The notes under the pieces: generated by a model | What the model was told of the DNA's origin: nothing | Seen by the model: only the letters and a program-made list of their open reading frames with translations | Database searches by the model: none | Shown here: one piece after another, positions 2,586 through 63,692 of the stretch | How the letters are laid out: every line of letters begins with the position of its first letter | Numbering within the stretch: the first letter of the stretch is position 1 | IMG/VR virus record: IMGVR_UViG_3300025751_000015 | Span: 20,139 to 84,138 of that record | DNA: 64,000 bases | DNA from: a virus | Lineage: Duplodnaviria > Caudoviricetes | Direction: 5' to 3' (one strand) | Made by a program: the position numbers and the translations under genes

Positions 2586-3574
2586 TGACATACATTCTCG
2601 TAGACACAGCAAATACATTTTTCCGTGCGAGACACGTTGTACGTGGTGATGCTGATATTAAAATCGGCATGGCGCTACATACAACGTTTCAAAGTATTCG
2701 CAAGGCTTGGAATGACTTTAATGGCAGTCATGTAGTGTTTTGTCTTGAGGGGCGTAGTTGGCGCAAGGACTTTTATGCACCGTATAAACGCAATCGTCAA
2801 GAAACTCGTGACGCACTTACCCCTTCACAACAGGAAGAAGATAAAATCTTCTGGGAAACATTTGATGAATTTACTGGATTTCTACGTGAAAAAACAAATT
2901 GCAGTGTGTTACAACACCCACAATTAGAAGCAGACGATTTAATTGCAGGCTGGATACAATCACATCCTAAAGACAATCATGTTATTATTAGCACCGATGG
3001 CGACTTTGCACAGTTAATTGCACCTAATGTAAAACAATACAATGGTGTATCAAAAACAACAATAACACACGAAGGATACTTTGATGAAAAAGGTAAACCT
3101 GTTATAGATAAAAAAACTAAGGCAGAAAAACCTGCACCTAATCCTGAGTGGTTGCTTTTTGAAAAGTGTATGCGTGGTGATACAAGCGATAATGTGTTTA
3201 GTGCATATCCAGGTGTTCGTGTAAAAGGTACAAAGAACAAGGTGGGATTGCAGGAAGCATTTGAAGACAGAGAAACAAAAGGTTTTAATTGGAATAACCT
3301 TATGTTACAACGTTGGACAGATCATGAAGGTAATGAACATAGAGTATTAGATGACTATTCAAGAAATGTTACACTTTGTGATTTAACTGCACAACCTGCA
3401 GAAATTAAAGAATTAATAGGACAAACTATTGCAGATGGTATTTCTGCAAGTAAAGACATTTCTCAGGTAGGTGTACGTTTAGTAAAATTTGCAAGCAGTT
3501 ACGATCTTAATAAGATTACTGAACAAGCAGAAACATATGCTAAACCTTTGAATGCAAGATACGGGAGAGTATAA
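2585..3574 (+). CDS. rnh: T4-type RNase H / 5'-3' flap exonuclease
   Basis: ILVDTANTFFR, SWRKDFYAPYKRNR, LEADDLIA, IISTDGDFAQL and MRGDTSDNV motifs of the FEN/5'-nuclease family. Confidence 0.9.
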   Translation: MTYILVDTANTFFRARHVVRGDADIKIGMALHTTFQSIRKAWNDFNGSHVVFCLEGRSWRKDFYAPYKRNRQETRDALTPSQQEEDKIFWETFDEFTGFLREKTNCSVLQHPQLEADDLIAGWIQSHPKDNHVIISTDGDFAQLIAPNVKQYNGVSKTTITHEGYFDEKGKPVIDKKTKAEKPAPNPEWLLFEKCMRGDTSDNVFSAYPGVRVKGTKNKVGLQEAFEDRETKGFNWNNLMLQRWTDHEGNEHRVLDDYSRNVTLCDLTAQPAEIKELIGQTIADGISASKDISQVGVRLVKFASSYDLNKITEQAETYAKPLNARYGRV

Positions 3575-4056
3575 TGGAATTTGAATTTAAAGCAAAACAG
3601 TTAGTTCCAAATAAATTTTGGATTGTACAAGATCATGGACGCAAGGTAGGAACACTAGCAAAAGAAAAAGAAGGATTTATTCTTGTTACTCCTAGGGATA
3701 AGATTAAATTTGAAAACGTAGAAAAAGTTTACGAAACTTTCGGACAGGATTTCTTCGAACAAACAGTAAAGAAAAAAACAAAAGATACAAAAGTTTTAGA
3801 AGTTCATGGGTATCCAACAAGTACACCTGCATATAATCCTTTACTAGATGTGCAGAACAATCTTCCTTTATACAGCAAAAGTAGAAAATCGAAAAGTTTA
3901 TACTGTGCAGGTTACTACACAATTAGATTTGCTAAAGGTTGGGTAAAAAGTTTTTGTCCTAAACTTATTACACTGCAAAGATATGAATACAAAGGTCCTT
4001 TTACAACAGAACTAGAAATGCGTCAGGTACTAGCAAATGTCTCGAAATCCAGTTAA
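3574..4056 (+). CDS. Conserved hypothetical phage protein
   Basis: 160-aa ORF translationally coupled to rnh (TAATG). Confidence 0.7.
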   Translation: MEFEFKAKQLVPNKFWIVQDHGRKVGTLAKEKEGFILVTPRDKIKFENVEKVYETFGQDFFEQTVKKKTKDTKVLEVHGYPTSTPAYNPLLDVQNNLPLYSKSRKSKSLYCAGYYTIRFAKGWVKSFCPKLITLQRYEYKGPFTTELEMRQVLANVSKSS

Positions 4057-19353: not shown

Positions 19354-21374
19354 TATGCCGCTGGCTCCCCTGATCTAATAATGTAATGCACTGCTAAGTA
19401 TGGGTTCATAACATTTAATGTATTGTAAGGTCCGCTACCTGTGGTTGATGAATATTGTGTTCCGCTACCAAAAGCAACGTTGCTTGTATCAATAGTTTCA
19501 CTACCTTGTGTACCACCTAAACTTCTAGCCGCGGTATTTGTTACTCTGTTTGCAACACCACCACCTGCATCAACTGCAATACCACTAACATCATTAACTG
19601 TTGTTCCATTGTCCATATTATCAAGACCTAATGGAAATCTACCACGCAAGTCTGGTAACTTAAATGTGTTTGGATTAACACCAGTTCCGTATGTTGTACC
19701 TATTGCATTGAATAATTGAGGATATAATCCTTGTGCAACTTCTGAACCATCGCATAACAAATACCCGCTTGGAATATCTGCGAAACTTGCAATTGGTCCA
19801 GCATATGACATAATAGCACCGATTGGGACCAATGATGCTCCTGCAAAAAAGTTTGTTCTTTGTACTTTTCTTAAACCTTGTCCGGATCTAACAATTAACA
19901 ATTCATCATCATTTTCGTTTTCTGTAACTTCTGTTTGTTCAGAAATAGCATCCTGTGTTAATGTTACGTTAAATGTTTTTTCTGTTCCGCCGGTTTGTCC
20001 ATCAAAACTAAAACCTGTTGAATCAGCAACGTGTCCTGACACTTTAAAAACTGTTGAAGCAACCAATCTATCTGATGTACCATTAACATTACCAAATACA
20101 TCACCAACAACTGTTCCTGTTAATCTTCCTGTAAATGTTTCTGAATAAACATTTCTAAATCTATTATTTGTTGTACCAATGTCTAACTGTGCATCAAATG
20201 CTTGTGTTCCATCATCTGTTGGTTGAATAGCAACTGTACCACTTCCTGTTTCACCTACTTGTATATGACCTTGGAATAATGCATTACCACCAACGTATAA
20301 ATTTTCAGCAATACCTGCACCACCTGCTACAATCAATGCACCTGTTGTTGTTGATGTGGCACTTGTTGTTGATGCAAGTTGAAGTGTTTCTGTAAAATGT
20401 CCACTTCCTGTAACATCTAATGCTACCGTTGGAGAAACTTGATTAATACCAACACGTTTGTTTCTGCCATCAACTCGCATAACTGTAACAACATCTCTAT
20501 CACTTTCTGGAAACACTTTAAAATCAATGTTGCCATCGAGTGAGTTGTTTTTAATTACAGCATTGTTGCTTGCAATTTCTAAGTTGAATATCTGATTAGC
20601 ACCAACAGTGACACCACCATCGTTTCTAACAAACAACTGACCATTCATTGTGTCAGTAATATCTGTTCTTAAAAAGTTGTTTGCATTAACAGTTTCAATA
20701 GCCGGTTGTGTTACGTTAAGTGCATCTGCCTTTGTGGCTGTTGCATGTAATTTGTTTAATACAATACCGTTATTATTAAAATCTGTATTTGAAATATTGA
20801 TTCCTGGAAACAGTTCAATGAATCCTTCAATTTTTTGTCTTGGAATAAATTGATCTTTTGAAATAATTGTTACAACTTTATCTGCAACATAGTTTTTAAT
20901 AACAGTGTGTGTTACGTTTTGTGTATCAACTACTTCTTCTGCTTGAGCGCCTGCTTTAAGGCCTCCCGCAAAATTAGGTCCTACCAACTGGAATTGAGCA
21001 CCTGTATAAAGATAAAGTTGATTGTTTGTTGTATCTACCCAAACATCTCCTCTTAAAGGATTATTAGGTTCAACCGCTTCAACATGAACACCGCCTGCTG
21101 GTCTCCAATTACTTGCTCCTGCTGTTGAATCGTTTATTTTTAATCTGTTTGTTCCACTATCATACCAAAGTTGTCCTTCAATTGGATTGTTTGGCGGATT
21201 GGTATTTGCAAAATTTTCTAATACATGCAAGAAATTTTCTGCAATCGCTTGACCGTAACTGGCTTCATTACGTCCTATAAACGTTAACGAAGTGTCAACA
21301 GTGTTACGACTATTGTCATCGATAACAATAGGATTTTTGTTAATACTATCTGTAAAGTTTACACTATATGCCAT
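19353..21374 (-). CDS. Tail fibre with C-terminal tail-collar domain (paralog 4)
   Basis: PIGAIMSYAG...GYLLCDG...YPQLFNAIG..YG...FKLPDLRGRFPLG and NPYLAVHYII. Confidence 0.85.
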   Translation of the reverse strand: MAYSVNFTDSINKNPIVIDDNSRNTVDTSLTFIGRNEASYGQAIAENFLHVLENFANTNPPNNPIEGQLWYDSGTNRLKINDSTAGASNWRPAGGVHVEAVEPNNPLRGDVWVDTTNNQLYLYTGAQFQLVGPNFAGGLKAGAQAEEVVDTQNVTHTVIKNYVADKVVTIISKDQFIPRQKIEGFIELFPGINISNTDFNNNGIVLNKLHATATKADALNVTQPAIETVNANNFLRTDITDTMNGQLFVRNDGGVTVGANQIFNLEIASNNAVIKNNSLDGNIDFKVFPESDRDVVTVMRVDGRNKRVGINQVSPTVALDVTGSGHFTETLQLASTTSATSTTTGALIVAGGAGIAENLYVGGNALFQGHIQVGETGSGTVAIQPTDDGTQAFDAQLDIGTTNNRFRNVYSETFTGRLTGTVVGDVFGNVNGTSDRLVASTVFKVSGHVADSTGFSFDGQTGGTEKTFNVTLTQDAISEQTEVTENENDDELLIVRSGQGLRKVQRTNFFAGASLVPIGAIMSYAGPIASFADIPSGYLLCDGSEVAQGLYPQLFNAIGTTYGTGVNPNTFKLPDLRGRFPLGLDNMDNGTTVNDVSGIAVDAGGGVANRVTNTAARSLGGTQGSETIDTSNVAFGSGTQYSSTTGSGPYNTLNVMNPYLAVHYIIRSGEPAA

Positions 21375-47416: not shown

Positions 47417-48439
47417 ATGGCACAATTATTTAAAAAGGCCGCGGTATTCACGGATATACACTTCGGTCTCAAAAGTAACTCAAAAATTCACAACGATGAT
47501 TGCGAAAGATTCATCGATTGGTATATTGAACAAGCAAAAGCAAACGGCTGTGATGTAGGTATATTCACAGGCGACTGGCATCATAACAGAAGTGCGTTAA
47601 ATTTAACCACCATGGATGCTAGTTTGCGTTCACTGGAAAAACTAGGTAAGGCATTTGATAAGTTTTACTTTTTTCCAGGCAACCACGATTTGTATTACAA
47701 AGACAAACGAGAGATTCACAGTGTAGTATTTGGTAAACACGTACCAGGTATTACTGTGGTAAACGAGCCAATGATCATTGATGATGTTGCATTGGTTCCA
47801 TGGTTAGTGCAAGAAGAATGGAAAGAAGTTGCAAAGATGAAGTGCAAATATATGTTTGGACACTTTGAACTTCCTAACTTCAAAATGAATGCTATGGTTG
47901 AAATGCCTGATACAGGAGAAATCAAAGCAGACGACTTTGCTAACCAAGAAATGGTGTTCACGGGCCACTTCCACAAACGTCAGCAACGCAAAAACATCTA
48001 TTATATCGGCAATGCCTTTCCACACAATTACGCCGATGCCTGGGATGATGAGCGTGGTATGATGATATTAGAATGGGGAGGTGAGCCCGAGTTCATCGAC
48101 TGGCCGGATTGTCCAAAATATAGAACTATACCACTTAGCAGATTACTAGATAAAACGGAAGAAATACTTTCTCCTAAAAATCTGTATTTGCGAGTAACAC
48201 TCGATATTGATATCAGTTACGAAGAAGCAAATTTTATTAAAGAAAACTTTTCAAGTCAATATGATATTAGAGAAATTAGTTTATTGCCTGACACCAATGC
48301 TGATGACGAAATAAACAAACTAGAATCAGGCGAAATTGATTTTGAATCAGTGGATCAAATTGTAACAGATCAAATAACAAAAATAGATAGCACAACATAT
48401 AAACCTAATCTGTTGTTGGATATCTATAGAGGATTATAA
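47417..48439 (+). CDS. gp47: Recombination nuclease subunit, gp47/Mre11/SbcD-like
   Basis: DIHFG, GDWHH, GNHD, GHFE and GHFH metallophosphoesterase motifs. Confidence 0.92.
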   Translation: MAQLFKKAAVFTDIHFGLKSNSKIHNDDCERFIDWYIEQAKANGCDVGIFTGDWHHNRSALNLTTMDASLRSLEKLGKAFDKFYFFPGNHDLYYKDKREIHSVVFGKHVPGITVVNEPMIIDDVALVPWLVQEEWKEVAKMKCKYMFGHFELPNFKMNAMVEMPDTGEIKADDFANQEMVFTGHFHKRQQRKNIYYIGNAFPHNYADAWDDERGMMILEWGGEPEFIDWPDCPKYRTIPLSRLLDKTEEILSPKNLYLRVTLDIDISYEEANFIKENFSSQYDIREISLLPDTNADDEINKLESGEIDFESVDQIVTDQITKIDSTTYKPNLLLDIYRGL

Positions 48440-50220
48440 TGTTTAAAATCAAAACAATAACAGTTAAAAACTTTATGAGTGTGGGTAACCAAACTCAAGC
48501 AGTAGATTTTGATAAGAACTTATTAACACTTGTACTAGGAGAAAACCTAGATTTAGGTGGAGACGATGCAGGTTCTCGTAACGGTACGGGTAAAACTACC
48601 ATTGTAAATGCTTTAAGTTATGCATTGTATGGCGAAGCACTTACAAAAATTCGTAGAGAAAACTTAATTAATAAAACCAACGGCAAAGGTATGTTGGTTA
48701 CCGTTGAGTTTGAAAAAGACGGTCAAAATTATCGTATTGAACGTGGACGTAAGCCAAATATTCTTAAATTTTTTAGAGAAGATATCGATGTTACTGCTGA
48801 CGACATTGACGAGTCACAGGGCGACAGTCGTAAAACACAAGAAGATATTATACAATTACTGAACATGACACACACCATGTTCAAGCATTTGGTGGCGCTC
48901 AACACATACACTGAGCCTTTCCTTTCACTCAAAGCCAATGATCAAAGAGAAATTATTGAGCAGTTGTTGGGCATCACCATCCTATCCGAAAAAGCAGAAC
49001 GTCTAAAAGATGAACAAAAGCGTGTGCGTGATGCTATTAGTGAAGAAGAAGCAACAATAAAAGGTATTGAAACAGCAAACAAAAAAGTACAAGAATCAAT
49101 CGACAATTTAGAAATTAAATCAAAAGCATGGGACGCAAATCAAGCAGAAGAACTTGCAAGAACAACCAAAGCAATTAGTCAATTAATTACGGTTGATATT
49201 GATGCAGAAATTCAAGCACATAAAAACAAAGAAGAATGGGATAACAAAAACAACGAACTTACCAATCTTAATAAAGAAAAGGCAAGTTTAGAAAGTAGTT
49301 TGTTACGTGCCGAACGCACACATTCAAAATATGAACAAGAATTAAAAGACATTGCAAGCAAAAAATGTTTTACTTGTGGACAGGATTTACATGACGAAGC
49401 ACATGGAAAAATTCTTGCTGAAAAACAAAATGATGTAACAGAAAGTCAAACTTATATTGACGGCATCGTGTTGCAGTTAAAAGATGTACAAAAGAAAATA
49501 GATGACATTGGAAATATTAACGGATGTCCGAAAACATTTTATGATAGCAGTGAAGAAGCATATAATCATAGAAACAATCTTGCAAGTCTAGAAGATCGAA
49601 AACGTGAAAAAGAAGAAGAATTAAATCCGTATACAGAACAAATGAAAGAATTGCGTGAACAAGCACTACAAGAAGTAAGTTGGGACAATATTAATGCTCT
49701 AACTGAAATGAAGGAACATATGGACTTCTTGTACAAACTGTTAACAAGCAAGGACTCTTTTATTCGTAAGCGTATTATTGATCAAAACTTGGCATTCCTT
49801 AACAAGCGTTTACAATACTATCTAGAACGCACAGGATTACCGCATCAGGTATTATTTTTGAACGATTTAACGGTACAAATTACAGAACTAGGACGTGACT
49901 TAGACTTTGATAACCTCAGTAGAGGAGAACGAAATAGACTTATTTTATCAATGAGTTGGGCGTTCCGTGACGTTTGGGAAAGTCTATATCAGAACATTAA
50001 TTTGTTGTTTATTGACGAACTTATTGATAACGGATTGGATGCCGCTGGTGTAGAAAGTTCAATCGGTATTCTTAAAAAGATGGCTAGAGATCGTGGTAAA
50101 AACATATATCTCATTTCGCACAAAGATGAACTATCTTCACGTGTGAATAACATCTTGAAGGTAATTAAGGATAACGGATTCACTTCATATTCCAACGACA
50201 CGGAGGTTGTGAATGCCTAA
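48439..50220 (+). CDS. gp46: Recombination ATPase subunit, gp46/Rad50/SbcC-like
   Basis: KNFMS, NGTGKT (Walker A), coiled coil with CFTC zinc hook, LSRGE signature, LFIDE (Walker B) and ISH. Confidence 0.93.
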   Translation: MFKIKTITVKNFMSVGNQTQAVDFDKNLLTLVLGENLDLGGDDAGSRNGTGKTTIVNALSYALYGEALTKIRRENLINKTNGKGMLVTVEFEKDGQNYRIERGRKPNILKFFREDIDVTADDIDESQGDSRKTQEDIIQLLNMTHTMFKHLVALNTYTEPFLSLKANDQREIIEQLLGITILSEKAERLKDEQKRVRDAISEEEATIKGIETANKKVQESIDNLEIKSKAWDANQAEELARTTKAISQLITVDIDAEIQAHKNKEEWDNKNNELTNLNKEKASLESSLLRAERTHSKYEQELKDIASKKCFTCGQDLHDEAHGKILAEKQNDVTESQTYIDGIVLQLKDVQKKIDDIGNINGCPKTFYDSSEEAYNHRNNLASLEDRKREKEEELNPYTEQMKELREQALQEVSWDNINALTEMKEHMDFLYKLLTSKDSFIRKRIIDQNLAFLNKRLQYYLERTGLPHQVLFLNDLTVQITELGRDLDFDNLSRGERNRLILSMSWAFRDVWESLYQNINLLFIDELIDNGLDAAGVESSIGILKKMARDRGKNIYLISHKDELSSRVNNILKVIKDNGFTSYSNDTEVVNA

Positions 50221-50443
50221 ATCTACCCATGAGTTGCTTGTTCAAGCAATGATGGATTACTATAACGCACAGGAACGCTTTGAAGCAAAAGGTTTTGATG
50301 AAACTGGACGCAAAGCACGAGTTATTCTTAGTGATATTAGAAGGTTAGCCACGACCAGACGCAACGAAATACAGGCAAAACGCAAGGCATTAAAAACGGA
50401 AAAAAAGCAAAATAAGACTCAAAACCAGAATCAAGACACCTAA
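50213..50443 (+). CDS. Small basic helical protein, possibly Hc1/histone-H1-like DNA-binding protein
   Basis: KG....GRKARVILSDIRRLATTRRNEIQ resembles the Hc1-like KG.KAAG.RARK pattern (recalled, unverified). Confidence 0.45.
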   Translation: MPKSTHELLVQAMMDYYNAQERFEAKGFDETGRKARVILSDIRRLATTRRNEIQAKRKALKTEKKQNKTQNQNQDT

Positions 50444-50467
50444 ATTTAAGGCACGGTAAGTATCACT

Positions 50468-50899
50468 ATGGAGTGGACTTATCAGGGCAAAATAGTACAA
50501 GAACTTCCGCAAGATTGCGAAGGTTTTGTTTACCTGATAACAAACACTACCAACAATCGTAAGTACGTAGGCAAAAAATTAGCAAAATTCAAGAAAACAC
50601 GCCCACCACTCAAAGGCAAGAAAAACAAACGAAGAAGCAAAGTTGAAAGTGATTGGAGAGACTATTGGGGATCTTCAGATCATTTACAGGCAGACGTTGA
50701 GGCACTAGGCCCAGAAAAGTTCACACGCGAAATTCTCCATTTTTGTAATAGCAGAGGCTTAATGAGTTATCTTGAGGCTAGAGAACAATTTGAACGCAGA
50801 GTATTAGAGACAGACGAGTATTATAACGGAATTATTAATGTAAGAGTAGGCAGTTCAAAGATTCTCAAAGAAGCACTCGAAAAATTAGGCAAAACATAA
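50468..50899 (+). CDS. Stand-alone GIY-YIG endonuclease (catalytic domain only; EndoII/Seg-like)
   Basis: GFVYLITN...RKYVGKK, YWGSS, catalytic-type LEAREQ and YYN; a basic insertion KKTRPPLKGKKNKRRSK. Confidence 0.85.
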   Translation: MEWTYQGKIVQELPQDCEGFVYLITNTTNNRKYVGKKLAKFKKTRPPLKGKKNKRRSKVESDWRDYWGSSDHLQADVEALGPEKFTREILHFCNSRGLMSYLEAREQFERRVLETDEYYNGIINVRVGSSKILKEALEKLGKT

Positions 50900-51420
50900 C
50901 AGCACATAAGGTTGGCGGGCCAGTTTGCAAATACCGCTGAGTAAAAGGTCCCCTGAGAAGGACACTCGTACACGTTGATCGACCACCACTGTGAGGTAAG
51001 CCATCAAACAAATTGGGCCAACTGGTTAACGGAGATTGAATGCTGTCAGTCGAAAACACTGTGTTTGAAAAAACTCTCCGCAACGGAACGAGGCGGGAGG
51101 TAGCGTAAGATGCCGCGAAGCGGCTTGCGATAGCAAAGCGATTTGTTAGCAGATTTTTACGTGATGTCGACGTAGGTAGGGGAAAGGTCAGAGCCCCACA
51201 AACAGGTGTATAAACAAAAACCTACTTCCAAGTCTTGGCTGTGACGAACTCACATGATGTTCAAGATTAGATGGAACCGTAAACAGGTTCCGTCTGACTG
51301 AAACAATCTACATGATGCTAAATTGCTTCGCAATTATTGTTCTTATATATTAAGAAAAAGAAAGTGGTGTTTGAGCGATAGCGAAAAACACAAGTGAACG
51401 CAGTTCACTTTACTTGTATT
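50900..51420 (+). ncRNA. Candidate large structured non-coding element (RNA, or ssDNA hairpin origin)
   Basis: No credible ORF; about 48% GC by hand count over 50941-51300 versus about 35% in sampled flanks; at least 10 helices. Strand and molecule type are not proven. Confidence 0.55.
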
Positions 51421-51422
51421 AG

Positions 51423-51605
51423 TTAATGTAAATCAGGATCTCTTCCGAAACCAGGTTTAACTGAACTAATCTGAATTTCCTTTAACTCGTATTCTTTATG
51501 TGGATTCTGTGTACGCATACACTCTATGCAAGTGTGTGCTTCTTCCTGTGAATTAGCAACGGTTATTTCTACACCATTTTCGTACACTATATATTTTGTA
51601 ATCAT
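51423..51605 (-). CDS. Small hypothetical protein (60 aa)
   Basis: TAAATA box upstream (51614-51619, minus); converges on the structured element. Confidence 0.6.
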   Translation of the reverse strand: MITKYIVYENGVEITVANSQEEAHTCIECMRTQNPHKEYELKEIQISSVKPGFGRDPDLH

Positions 51606-51680
51606 CGTGTAAATATTTAGGTAAGTACTTATTACAATTAAACTACGCTATTTGGTTTTATATGTTTCAAACTGTGATTA

Positions 51681-51688
51681 TATAAATA
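51681..51688 (+). promoter_or_regulatory. T4-type late promoter TATAAATA
   Basis: Exact T4 late consensus, then AGGAG and ATG 51707. Confidence 0.75.
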
Positions 51689-51706
51689 CGATTAGGAGAT
51701 TTTGGT

Positions 51707-52372
51707 ATGAAAATTAATGAAGTTGCTGTTTTAAACGAAGCAAAAAAGATCGATGAAGCACCGTACGGTATGCTAAAAGGTCTAGGCGATAAAGTTGCCG
51801 CAAAAATGGGCTCTCAGCGAGCCGCCGACGCTGGCGCGATTGGCAAAGAGGCTAATGCACTTAAAAAGCAGTTTACCAGTTTTTGGAAAAACGCTAATGC
51901 ACAGCAACCCACAAAAGAAATTATGGTACAGTACCTACAAGCAAAAGGCTTTCCAATTGCTAACACACAGGAATTAGATTCTATTGCAAAAAGTGTAGGT
52001 AAACCAAACCCAGGCATAGCACAAAAAATTGCCAAGGGTTGGAAGAACTTTAAAAAAGGTTTACCAAAAATGACCGGTGCAAAACCAACCGCACTAAAAC
52101 CAAATCTCAACGTGCAGGATGGTGGCAAGGAACAAGAAAAAGTAGCCGCAAGCATGTATGAAGCGGTACCAAAATCCCAAATACTAAGCGACAAAGCAAT
52201 TGATCAAATTCTCATGTACATTGTTAGAGCAGGATTCCAACAACGTGCTGACCTAGGAGGCGCAAGTTCTTTTGCTCCTAATACCGGGGGTACAGATACT
52301 AAACCCACAAGCACAGGTCAATCCGCGGGTGGCATGACACAGGGCAAAGATGGTGTTTGGAGATTTAACTAA
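51707..52372 (+). CDS. Late protein, candidate internal head protein
   Basis: Late promoter; N-terminal INE/LNE/IDE motifs resemble T4 gp21 cleavage sites. Confidence 0.55.
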   Translation: MKINEVAVLNEAKKIDEAPYGMLKGLGDKVAAKMGSQRAADAGAIGKEANALKKQFTSFWKNANAQQPTKEIMVQYLQAKGFPIANTQELDSIAKSVGKPNPGIAQKIAKGWKNFKKGLPKMTGAKPTALKPNLNVQDGGKEQEKVAASMYEAVPKSQILSDKAIDQILMYIVRAGFQQRADLGGASSFAPNTGGTDTKPTSTGQSAGGMTQGKDGVWRFN

Positions 52373-52881: not shown

Positions 52882-53104
52882 AACTAATTCCAGTATCTTT
52901 GGTATTTTTAAAATTTTCCTGAACAAGTTCACCTATTGCTTGTCTTTCTTCAAAGGTGGTTTGATAAGCATCTTTTATTTGAAGTCCACCACGCATATAC
53001 CAGGATAATCTAATTAGATCGGCAACAATACTCTTTGCTTGATTTTCTAGATCTTTAACGTATTCTATAATTTCAGAAATCGAGAGTGTTGCTACCTTGA
53101 TACG
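52874..53104 (-). CDS. gp51-like reading frame (76 aa, RIKVATLSISEII...WYMRGG...TGISFI), reachable by -1 frameshift from the gp26-like gene
   Basis: 77 open codons after slippery T TTT TTC (53110-53104). First ATG is at codon 37; the same frame has TGA three codons before the slip site. Absent from the ORF track. Confidence 0.65.
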   Translation of the reverse strand, partial: RIKVATLSISEIIEYVKDLENQAKSIVADLIRLSWYMRGGLQIKDAYQTTFEERQAIGELVQENFKNTKDTGISFI

Positions 53105-53952
53105 AAAAAACTTGATTGATCAAACATCAGTGGAACGTTTACTTCTTCCGGTGCTCCTTTATCAACAAGTTCTTGGCTTACCTTGATTCGTCTAGGTTTG
53201 ATCGTCCAGTTATTTTTTACTTCTTCCAAATGAGTTTCAACCGCTACAAAGGTATCCTTATCTGTGTTGTTAAAGAAATCTCTAATAGCACTTGGATTCG
53301 ATTCTGTTCCGTCTGGAGTTTCAATAGCAATAACTTGGCTTAGAATCATGTCTAATGTTACAGCACTGAGTTTTTTAAAGCCTTCTTTAAAAGCCTTAAG
53401 TTTGTCTTCATCTGGTACATCTTCTCTCTGTAACAACCCTGTAAGTCTTTGCTGTTCGTATGTGGATTGATAAAATCCTGTGCTTTGTTTGTAGGTTAAA
53501 GGTTTCATGTGAAACGTTAAATCCTGATACTTGAATGTGTTAGGCCATTCTTTTCCCTGCATTGAGTCAAGCACTTCTCGAAGATCAACCGATGTTTTTT
53601 CGGTAGTTGGCTCTTCCAGTCCCATAATCGGAACTTCTACGTCCATGGATTCACCGTATGTGGCAATTCTGATTGCAATTAGGATAGCATCTAAATCAAT
53701 CATTGGAATATCCCACGGATCGGTGATTAAAGGACAGCAACTTTTTATAACTTCTGCTGTGGCGTCACCGTTCATTAGTGCATCCGGTGTCCTCATTAAT
53801 AGTTCATCTTTGGCTGTCATTGAATAAATTGGTAATTCTCCAGACCCTGATTTTTCCATTGGGTTGGATTTGTAAAACTTGCCTCCGCTGGGCAAATTCA
53901 AGTAAATTTTTGGTTGACGTTTATACTTGCTTAAAACGCTTTGATTTTCCAT
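53092..53952 (-). CDS. gp26: Baseplate hub assembly chaperone, T4 gp26-like
   Basis: LSKYKRQPKIYLNLPSGGKFY, ELPIYSMTAKDELL..TPDAL.NG, P.IDLDAILIAIRIATYGE and FHMKPLTY. Confidence 0.7.
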   Translation of the reverse strand: MENQSVLSKYKRQPKIYLNLPSGGKFYKSNPMEKSGSGELPIYSMTAKDELLMRTPDALMNGDATAEVIKSCCPLITDPWDIPMIDLDAILIAIRIATYGESMDVEVPIMGLEEPTTEKTSVDLREVLDSMQGKEWPNTFKYQDLTFHMKPLTYKQSTGFYQSTYEQQRLTGLLQREDVPDEDKLKAFKEGFKKLSAVTLDMILSQVIAIETPDGTESNPSAIRDFFNNTDKDTFVAVETHLEEVKNNWTIKPRRIKVSQELVDKGAPEEVNVPLMFDQSSFFVSR

Positions 53953-53965
53953 GGTTGCTATCCTC

Positions 53966-54006
53966 TATAAATAACGTTATACTAATAATTAGTAAATGTA
54001 TTTATA
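53966..54006. promoter_or_regulatory. Two face-to-face TATAAATA late promoters
   Basis: TATAAATA on plus at 53966-53973 (towards 54032) and on minus at 53999-54006 (towards 53952). Confidence 0.7.
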
Positions 54007-63202: not shown

Positions 63203-63293
63203 ATACATTACACGTTAGAAAGGGCCGACACAATGTTGGACTTATGCTGTTTAACCCACAGCGTAGACCTAGAACGTCAACAAGGAGAAAAAA

Positions 63294-63692
63294 ATGGGAA
63301 GACCAATTAATAAAAGAAAAATCGGACAAGGTACTGGCAAAATTTTATGTTCTGCATACTACTTTGCAACTGCGTCTGAAGTAAACGGTGCTACAACTCC
63401 GGCATGGATTGTATCACAAAGATCTACTAACAAGTTCATTGTTACTGATGGAACTACTACACAGACTCTTAAATTAGTTAATAAATCAGCAGGCGGCTTA
63501 GGCTCAGGCGAGTTTATTATTAATGCTGTCTTAGATGATTCATCTGTAGTACAAGTTACAAAATTACGTAACAGAACTATTCAGTATGAAGGCGGAACTG
63601 CAAACGTTGCAAATGTTAAATTTAACATTGGAAAAGGCTTAACTGTAGGCTCTACAACTGACGCAACAGCAGAAGTTGAAGGTCAACAATAA
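63294..63692 (+). CDS. Late virion-associated hypothetical protein
   Basis: AAGGAG SD, TAAATA at 63200 and a terminator downstream. Confidence 0.7.
   Translation: MGRPINKRKIGQGTGKILCSAYYFATASEVNGATTPAWIVSQRSTNKFIVTDGTTTQTLKLVNKSAGGLGSGEFIINAVLDDSSVVQVTKLRNRTIQYEGGTANVANVKFNIGKGLTVGSTTDATAEVEGQQ

Follow-up and report, generated by a model that had tools for sequence, protein, structure and literature searches.

What occupies the ~500 nucleotides (nt) behind a small nuclease gene in a T4-like phage, and does that element serve the nuclease? The window (the whole stretch of DNA analyzed, 64,000 nt, positions 20,139–84,138 of the IMG/VR virus record IMGVR_UViG_3300025751_000015) carries on its + strand, at 50468–50899, a gene for a stand-alone GIY-YIG nuclease of 143 amino acids (aa), followed by a gap without recognizable genes. 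The initial annotation, made from the letters of the window, described the two as a candidate nuclease–RNA system. The gap encodes a conserved, covarying structured RNA on the + strand. As to its role, we favor, with modest confidence, a trans-acting modular RNA of giant T4-like phages to which the nuclease is a mere neighbor.

A structured RNA behind the GIY-YIG nuclease gene

As delimited by conservation and covariation, the whole RNA occupies 50900–51412 on the + strand (~490–510 nt) and extends from a conserved leader, (C)AGCACAUAAGG, to a terminal hairpin. The gap had been described as free of credible open reading frames (ORFs), and this holds: the + strand of 50900–51420 has no ORF longer than 42 aa, and none is conserved across relatives. 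The GC content is 0.42–0.50 across 50800–51300 (0.46–0.50 in 50900–51300) versus ~0.32–0.37 in the flanks, which places the element ~12–15 points above its surroundings, in agreement with the ~48% given initially. The gap folds better than shuffled sequence (z of −2.85 for the + strand and −2.48 for the − strand) and is single-copy in the 84-kb record. By blastn, the element is 72–93% identical in ~25 relatives, and its 3′ part alone was found in ~20 more loci. Because many of the pairs are G-U pairs fixed on the + strand, this strand is the folding strand.

A 21-helix model was scored on an alignment (A3) of 17 sequences of the window's subtype (type A), in which both nuclease contexts described below are represented. 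The controls were the same model with the letters of the 3′ sides shuffled, or with the partners slid by 1–3 columns.

Cells paired: model, 90.4%; shuffled, 80.5%; slid, ~36%
Pairs with changes on both sides, of 100: model, 41; shuffled, 26; slid, 10–16
Covariation score: model, 0.302; shuffled, 0.148 (0 of 500 shuffles reach the observed value); slid, 0.05–0.08

In the 5′ half, RNAalifold run on 12 close relatives gave five helices with compensatory changes; run on 25 diverse 3′ domains, it gave such changes in P10 and P11. The structured non-coding element postulated from the single sequence is therefore real, being conserved and covarying in relatives. Its parts are as follows.

50914–51051 (+), 5′ domain, with compensatory changes in every helix
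50914–50938 (+), P1 hairpin
50939–50967 (+), P2, GAGU..GGUCC/GGAC..ACUC
50973–50981 with 51023–51031 (+), P3, a long-range pairing of CGUUGAUCG with UGGUUAACG, covarying
50984–50993 and 51000–51018 (+), P3a and P3b, enclosed by P3
51034–51051 (+), P4 hairpin, covarying
51074–51081 with 51093–51099 (+), P5 stem, closing the conserved loop AACGGAACGAG, covarying
51103–51162 (+), P6, a variable expansion of GNRA-like mini-hairpins
51172–51177 with 51220–51225 (+), P7, GUAGGU/ACCUAC, 100% paired, with two compensatory pairs
inside P7 (+), P7a, GGGG/CCCC, with the conserved loop AAAGGUCAGAG
51228–51238 (+), P8, a small hairpin
51249–51259 (+), twin motif copy 1, CUCACAUGAUG, single-stranded, in lock-step with copy 2
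51269–51295 (+), P10, a 10-bp hairpin, AGAUGGAACC/GGUUCCGUCU, the base-paired core of covariance model R1
51307–51317 (+), twin motif copy 2, UCUACAUGAUG, single-stranded, in lock-step with copy 1
51322–51334 (+), P11 hairpin, AUUGC-UUC-GCAAU, with both-side changes in 12 sequences at one pair and in 4 at another
51336–51366 (+), AU-rich linker, hypervariable and indel-rich, the sole unpaired hypervariable stretch
51367–51410 (+), P12 (GUGUU..AACAC) around the conserved UGAGCGAUAGCGAAA, and the terminal hairpin (51392–51410), both covarying

The P5 stem reads CUCUCCGC/GCGGGAG in the window, CUAUUUC/GAAAUAG in L209 and CUGUAAC/GUUACAG in L202 (L numbers denote related loci). In P10, both sides change at five pairs in 8–10 sequences, across RNA types. 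P7a scores low, in part from a one-column alignment slip. Much of the nested-helix scheme drawn initially is retained in this model: GAGT/ACTC with GTCC/GGAC (50939–50967), GTAGGT/ACCTAC (51172–51177/51220–51225) around GGGG/CCCC, and the 10-bp AGATGGAACC/GGTTCCGTCT stem (51269–51295) are supported by covariation or invariance, whereas GTGA/TCAC (51241–51254) is weak and breaks in the relatives that carry a PD-(D/E)XK gene. Three other pairings of that scheme, the long-range CCAGTT/AACTGG, CGGAGA/TCTCCG and CAGT/ACTG, had to be given up; they are 62.4% paired versus a shuffle mean of 62.0%, they do not covary, and their bases instead form the covarying P3, P4 and P5. Two further candidate pairings were not adopted. 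The long-range pairing of GUAGAUUG (51031–51038) with CAAUCUAC (51304–51311), together with UCAGUC/GACUGA, is unsupported for type A, as it breaks in 5 of the 17 sequences, and in precisely these five, compensatory changes preserve the local P4 hairpin. The pairing of the P7a loop GUCAGA with UCUGAC after P10, drawn by eye only, is not kept in L209 and L202 and is absent from type B.

The words that had been likened to C/D boxes or kink turns are all present (AC(A/G)TGATG at 51159, 51252 and 51310; CTGA at 50937, 50953 and 51294). CUGA (51294) followed by AUGAUG (51311) could form a K-loop, but the variants AUAAUG and AUAAAG lack the required G. The only C/D-box entry in the Rfam results lies outside the RNA, at 51561–51642 on the − strand (26.5 bits versus a gathering threshold of 50, E value of 0.045).

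The mini-hairpins of P6 also bear on the possibility that the region acts as single-stranded DNA, for example as a mini-hairpin origin or priming site within 51101–51411. The GC-GNA-GC hairpins at 51103–51162 resemble stable single-stranded DNA hairpins, and the region adjoins a replication gene cluster. However, this segment is the least conserved part of the element and is absent from many relatives, and covarying helices with many + strand G-U pairs over the full 500 nt fit RNA; a role as DNA structure is scarcely credible. The P6 expansion is missing in L006, L055, L080 and L202–L212, and several relatives have a single tetraloop hairpin instead.

Searches for known RNA classes gave no counterpart. 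Rfam returned nothing in the gap at gathering or permissive thresholds, and ARAGORN detected no tRNA or transfer-messenger RNA (tmRNA) in the window or in 21 related loci; with both empty for the element, the earlier statement that it matches neither tmRNA, RNase P, group I/II introns nor CRISPR stands. Identity with tmRNA was rejected on the same searches. The phage Melnitz was reported with a two-piece tmRNA (PMC9004378), which is a different gene elsewhere in the Melnitz genome.

An unusual feature of the RNA is a pair of 9-nt single-stranded motifs that flank P10. A covariance model of the 3′ core, R1, was used to align 84 distinct RNAs and compare the two copies; identity between copies at four positions was as follows.

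Position x1: same in both copies in 80 of 84 RNAs; 50 expected if independent
Position x2: same in 83 of 84; 42 expected
Position 7 (0-based): same in 83 of 84; 67 expected
Position 9 (0-based): same in 76 of 84; 45 expected

The two x2 columns share as much mutual information as the Watson–Crick pairs of P10 do, and no segment complementary to the motifs was found inside the RNA. The twin motifs evolve in lock-step by identity, not by base-pair complementarity. A two-fold common partner, or a contact between the two copies, would account for this pattern.

The RNA family and the Polynucleobacter-1 motif

The window RNA belongs to one family with several subtypes: type A, types B and C, which have different and shorter 5′ parts, and an RF01718-type. 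The 3′ core, consisting of P7, twin motif 1, P10, twin motif 2 and P11, is common to all subtypes, and the P12 hairpin with the conserved UGAGCGAUAGCGAAA is shared by most of them. In the RF01718-type, the 5′ start is a perfect match to the Rfam family Polynucleobacter-1 (RF01718; 107.8 bits in L074 and 59.4 bits in L029). Model R1 gave one match in the window (88.6 bits) and matched 86 other loci. Among the latter are L029, L074, L219, L221, L226, L243, L264 and L266, which score 59–120 bits on RF01718.

In model searches, the relationship did not extend to the 5′ domain. RF01718 itself had no match in 50700–51800, which includes the window RNA, or in the whole 84-kb record at E values up to 10 (gathering threshold, 37 bits). 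Conversely, a model of the window-type 5′ domain (R2) matched 0 of the 9 RF01718-type loci at E values up to 1, left types B and C unmatched, and recognized only type-A relatives such as L286. Homology of the 5′ domain to RF01718 was thus negative in both search directions. By eye, P1, P2 and P3 appear to resemble the first, second and fourth helices of the RF01718 motif.

The supplement of Weinberg et al. (2010) noted that Polynucleobacter-1 is found mostly downstream of GOS11034, a gene possibly homologous to PSSM2_218, and that no copy was seen in a sequenced phage (PMC2864571). PSSM2_218 is the P-SSM2 match of the window nuclease in tblastn. Since the two are homologous, the link between gene and RNA has been on record since 2010, when the gene was not recognized as a nuclease. 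Literature searches found no further published account of this RNA beyond the 2010 paper. The published motif and the window RNA occupy the same genomic place, and the RF01718-scoring RNAs of sister phages carry the 3′ core of the window. On the other hand, RF01718 covers 141 nt, whereas the whole unit is ~450–500 nt, and the published motif includes neither the 3′ core and the twin motifs nor the alternative 5′ domains and the PD-(D/E)XK partner. Within this much larger RNA, the 141-nt motif is a 5′ module that some members have and others lack. What is new here is an RNA of ~450–500 nt that is modular and carries lock-step 9-nt single-stranded motifs.

Linkage to two unrelated nuclease genes and the role of the RNA

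The upstream protein matches PF19835 (SegE_GIY-YIG) with an E value of 5.6e-36 and 123.9 bits against a cut-off of 25, over profile positions 1–123 of 123. It also matches phrog_447 (E value of 8e-39); the weaker PHROG matches are homing endonucleases. F20-V21-Y22, Y33-x-G35, R87, E103 and N120 are invariant in 11–12 homologs with identities down to 37%, and the catalytic roles of these GIY/YIG, Arg, Glu and Asn residues may be assigned by analogy with I-TevI. In the AlphaFold model (mean predicted local distance difference test score of 84.7), a basic arm (residues ~39–60) forms a β-hairpin. The best Protein Data Bank match in Foldseek is the catalytic domain of I-TevI, 1LN0 (probability of 0.99, root mean square deviation of 2.7 Å); for 1LN0 and 1MK0, the probabilities are 0.97–0.99 and the TM scores by target 0.58–0.59, with an E value of only 0.08. 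Searched by sequence, singly or as a profile, the nuclease had zero matches among solved structures, endonuclease II (EndoII) included. The protein is a catalytic domain plus a basic arm, with 20 residues beyond the catalytic domain and no separate DNA-binding domain, as the initial annotation had described it. In cyanophage homologs that stand without the RNA, the arm is shorter but still basic. Hundreds of phage records, from cyanophages and others, label this GIY-YIG family "NAD synthetase" (PSSM2_218, S-RIM14 LIS021110_187, phrog_447); the label is a propagated misannotation, as Pfam, the motif residues and the fold all point to a GIY-YIG nuclease.

The initial reading presupposed that relatives of the nuclease are linked to the element. 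A protein scan of viral contigs gave at least 588 confirmed relatives, of which the best 80 are 77–96% identical and nearly all syntenic with a gp46-like gene. Wherever enough downstream sequence was available, the nuclease gene is followed by an ORF-poor gap of 380–520 nt, and a version of the RNA is present in 80 of 80 such GIY-YIG loci. Linkage was also examined independently of the nuclease, by searching viral contigs with a 16-nt word of the RNA core, which gave 75 matches in RNA context. In 61 of them, a GIY-YIG gene ends 320–430 nt upstream, and nine lie at contig ends and are uninformative. The remaining five are without GIY-YIG, and the preceding gene encodes a 169-aa protein of PF24608 (PDDEXK_15; E value of 1e-23), a PD-(D/E)XK protein unrelated to the GIY-YIG protein. 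All 66 informative copies thus follow one of two nucleases. No GIY-YIG homolog was found in the five PF24608–RNA records, one of which is 306 kb and 87% complete, and no PF24608 protein was found in the record of the window. The type-A RNA behind the PD-(D/E)XK gene has the same AGCACAUAAGG leader ~10–20 nt from the stop codon and the same ACAUGA twin motifs. The twin-motif variants AC, AG, GC and GG are independent of the nuclease family, and AC and AG occur with both nucleases.

A further 80 PDDEXK_15 loci were fetched and the RNA was sought in them by sequence profiles. It is present in ~55 of the 80, usually starting within 40 nt of the stop codon, and in six loci RF01718 matches at 96–120 bits directly 3′ of the PD-(D/E)XK gene. 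Cultured PDDEXK_15 homologs are annotated as Holliday-junction resolvases, and no relatives were found in bacterial genomes. Homologs of both nucleases also occur apart from the RNA: Melnitz (75% identity), P-SSM2 and S-RIM14 have the GIY-YIG homolog without a large RNA alongside, PA5oct and SCTP-2 have the PD-(D/E)XK homolog without room for an adjoining RNA, and R1 had zero matches in the whole genomes of these five phages. In S-RIM14, a tRNA-Arg gene (L084, 2112–2184) lies ~190 nt after the GIY-YIG homolog, a further example of an RNA gene downstream of this nuclease family.

Here, we propose a mode of synthesis and action for the RNA. The element is a gene for a large multi-domain structured RNA of ~490–510 nt, read from the + strand. 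Most likely, the RNA is made as a 3′ extension of an operon that ends in the small nuclease gene, because the interval from the stop codon to the leader offers no room and contains no promoter-like site, and no terminator-like hairpin follows until 51392–51410. No sigma-70-like site and no TATAAATA box (the T4 late-promoter word) was found between 50899 and the RNA. The absence of a terminator right after the nuclease stop, asserted initially, is borne out, as the + strand is clear of terminator-like sites until 51392 and has them only at 51392–51410 and beyond. This hairpin, at the far end of the element, is terminator-like on both strands and stronger on the − strand, where a U-run follows. 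The RNA always sits at the junction between a rightward replication/recombination cluster and a convergent baseplate cluster, behind the small nuclease gene. It would act in trans, as an RNA or ribonucleoprotein (RNP) in its own right, and its lock-step single-stranded motifs would most plausibly be presented to a dimeric or duplicated partner other than the nuclease. The nuclease would be a co-transcribed neighbor and not an RNA-guided enzyme. It may itself fill the debranching role: endonuclease VII (PF02945) was not found in the window's own record, the 306-kb sister record, a metagenome-assembled genome (MAG) with a 335-kb contig or Melnitz, a search that had no positive control and lends weak support to this assignment.

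The linkage could also mean that the RNA serves the upstream nuclease as cofactor, guide, scaffold, decoy or inhibitor, which we regard as unlikely. The 66 of 66 copies behind a small nuclease come from a nuclease-independent search, and the link spans two unrelated folds and the RNA subtypes, including the RF01718-type after PDDEXK_15. The nuclease lacks a DNA-binding domain yet has a basic β-hairpin arm, and the interval between its ORF and the RNA has neither promoter nor terminator. The lock-step motifs suggest a two-fold partner and could be directed at both arms or strands of a symmetric target or at the two protomers of a dimeric nuclease. However, the same type-A RNA with the same twin motifs stands behind either fold, and its specific recognition by two unrelated proteins of 143–169 aa is unlikely; the twin-motif variants do not track the nuclease family, and both nucleases have homologs in cultured phages whose genomes lack such an RNA, where the basic arm persists, shorter, in the cyanophage proteins. 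Moreover, the convergent baseplate neighbor shows the same constancy as the nuclease. A guide-like segment was not found at an end of the RNA; the hypervariable linker at 51336–51366 is internal and AU-rich, and its target matches were not searched. The initial idea that the RNA supplies specificity or a scaffold to the nuclease is thus unsupported, since the same RNA stands behind an unrelated nuclease and homologs stand without it, and an RNA-guided nuclease is possible but unsupported. A broader form of the idea is that one large RNA is the functional partner of structure-specific nucleases, GIY-YIG or PD-(D/E)XK, which would be a new kind of RNA–nuclease module; we consider it rather improbable. 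If it were true, the twin motifs might be directed at both arms or both strands of a symmetric DNA target; alternatively, the RNA might be a branched decoy restraining a toxic debranching enzyme until packaging.

The close spacing admits a simpler explanation, in which the element is a cis-acting 3′ untranslated region that stabilizes, terminates or tunes the mRNA of the last, potentially toxic nuclease gene and has no role in trans. It would fit the start of the RNA ~10–20 nt from the stop codon in both nuclease contexts and the convergent junction, at which the end hairpin reads as a terminator on both strands. Nevertheless, ~450 nt with multiple junctions, conserved loops and lock-step motifs far exceed the known needs of a stabilizer or terminator, and the RNA keeps its place when an extra ORF intervenes, which makes this explanation improbable.

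The exchange of nucleases at one slot recalls homing. Both nucleases might be free-standing homing endonucleases in a selfish cassette beside an RNA gene that is their cleavage target; conserved RNA genes are classic homing targets, as with the Seg and Mob enzymes of T4, the Pfam family is named for T4 SegE, and the weaker PHROG matches have already been mentioned. This is very unlikely, however, as there are 0 empty sites among the 66 informative RNA copies, and the nuclease is present in every syntenic locus at 72–96% identity and is not sporadic. In addition, the C-terminal DNA-binding domain that characterizes Seg enzymes is missing from it, and the resolvase annotation of the PDDEXK_15 homologs does not fit homing enzymes.

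The convergent small ORF and the T4_baseplate gene downstream are as constant as the nuclease, while the genes further upstream vary; therefore, conserved gene order alone can explain the adjacency. Several points nevertheless weigh against a trans-acting RNA with the nuclease as a bystander. That every informative copy lies behind a nuclease, of two unrelated families and with four RNA subtypes, is beyond the expected inertia of gene order and leaves room for a functional tie to the nuclease (regulation, decoy or cofactor). In ~12 PD-(D/E)XK loci (L225, L228, L253 and similar; ~3004–4047), an extra ORF of 261–344 aa without a Pfam match lies between nuclease and RNA, which weakens strict adjacency although one operon is retained. 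About 25 of the 80 PD-(D/E)XK loci (L239–L247, L252, L256–L258, L263–L281) have, downstream of ~3010, a gene-free gap of 550–730 nt before the convergent baseplate gene that neither the sequence profiles, R1 nor RF01718 recognize; these gaps may hold a further, more divergent RNA subtype. The dimeric partner is suggested by the lock-step motifs only, and kinship among the RNAs inflates their counts. Finally, the last part of the nuclease ORF could itself contain a promoter, and the 5′ end of the RNA, any processing and the co-transcription are deduced from sequence.

Large many-helix RNAs are rare in bacteria and phages, and those that have been solved are usually ribozymes, RNP scaffolds or self-assembling particles. 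GOLLD, ROOL, OLE and raiA resemble the present RNA in size class, in their many helices and junctions, in carriage by phages, in conserved unpaired motifs and in having no known job, but it has no sequence or structure match in Rfam, its carriers are aquatic giant T4-like phages, and its position behind a nuclease is fixed. The omega-RNAs of TnpB and IscB and HEARO share the arrangement of a compact nuclease ORF followed by a structured RNA on the same strand. In contrast to them, the nucleases here (143–169 aa) lack a large RNA-binding domain, neither transposon ends nor a terminal guide are present, and the RNA is common to two unrelated nucleases. The window nuclease shares the GIY-YIG catalytic fold and motif residues with I-TevI and the T4 Seg endonucleases and, like T4 EndoII, is a stand-alone catalytic domain. 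Unlike I-TevI and the Seg enzymes, it has no linker or DNA-binding domain, and its distribution is syntenic and not sporadic.

Uncultured giant T4-like phages of aquatic habitats commonly carry the RNA, at a fixed address behind a nuclease of either of two unrelated folds. Experimenters gain a defined transcript, a helix map, two candidate protein neighbors and, in the twin motifs, a precise mutational target. At stake is whether phage DNA processing has a new RNA cofactor or the phages carry another ornate RNA of unsolved role.

Gene neighborhood and transcription signals

The genes around the nuclease and the RNA are as follows.

48439–50220 (+), gp46-like SbcC/Rad50-type recombination ATPase, 593 aa (PF13476, AAA_23, E value of 4e-10)
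50213–50443 (+), 76-aa ORF between the gp46-like and nuclease genes, with no Pfam or PHROG match
51423–51605 (−), 60-aa ORF in convergent orientation, at the start of the leftward cluster, homologous in relatives
53092–53952 (−), baseplate-type gene, a member of the leftward cluster, starting at 53952

The gp46-like ATPase also has a weaker SMC_N match (E value of 1.4e-06, 28.4 bits), which is under the Pfam cut-off of 40 bits. Its gene lies upstream in the same rightward cluster as the nuclease gene and is syntenic in nearly all related loci. PF12322 (T4_baseplate) was confirmed only on the equivalent gene of relatives, at the same position in L161, L219 and L254. Beyond the 60-aa ORF, + strand genes resume after a TATAAATA box at 51681 with an ORF at 51707, whose 221-aa protein had zero relatives in viral contigs.

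The late-type box that the initial annotation placed 5 nt before the nuclease start codon is absent, as nothing resembling TATAAATA precedes 50468; the word occurs only at 51681 (+), 53966 (+) and 53999 (−). Late expression of the nuclease gene, proposed on that basis, is unsupported, given that it follows closely on the gp46-like gene and the 76-aa ORF. Exact TATAAATA words (51681–51688, +; 53999–54006, −) precede the 221-aa ORF and the baseplate-type gene. Three such words in 64 kb compare with 7.4 expected by chance.

The genes of the window are T4-like in character. CheckV estimates the 84-kb source record to be 24% complete, which implies a genome of ~350 kb, and the sister record G003 is 306 kb and 87% complete. 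The nuclease–RNA locus is also found on a 335-kb contig inside a "Neomarinimicrobiota" MAG (L284). From these sizes, the phages form a T4-like lineage with giant genomes of ~300–350 kb, and their nearest cultured relative is the OM43 myophage Melnitz, the nuclease protein of which was compared above. Several "bacterial MAG" contigs, including one labeled Polynucleobacter sp. (L288), are probably misbinned phage DNA. Elsewhere in the window, 63224–63296 (+) matches the Rfam freshwater-2 RNA (RF02980; 51.1 bits versus a gathering threshold of 49.9); the match ends in AAGGAGAAAAA-AAUG and looks like the 5′ leader of the following gene.

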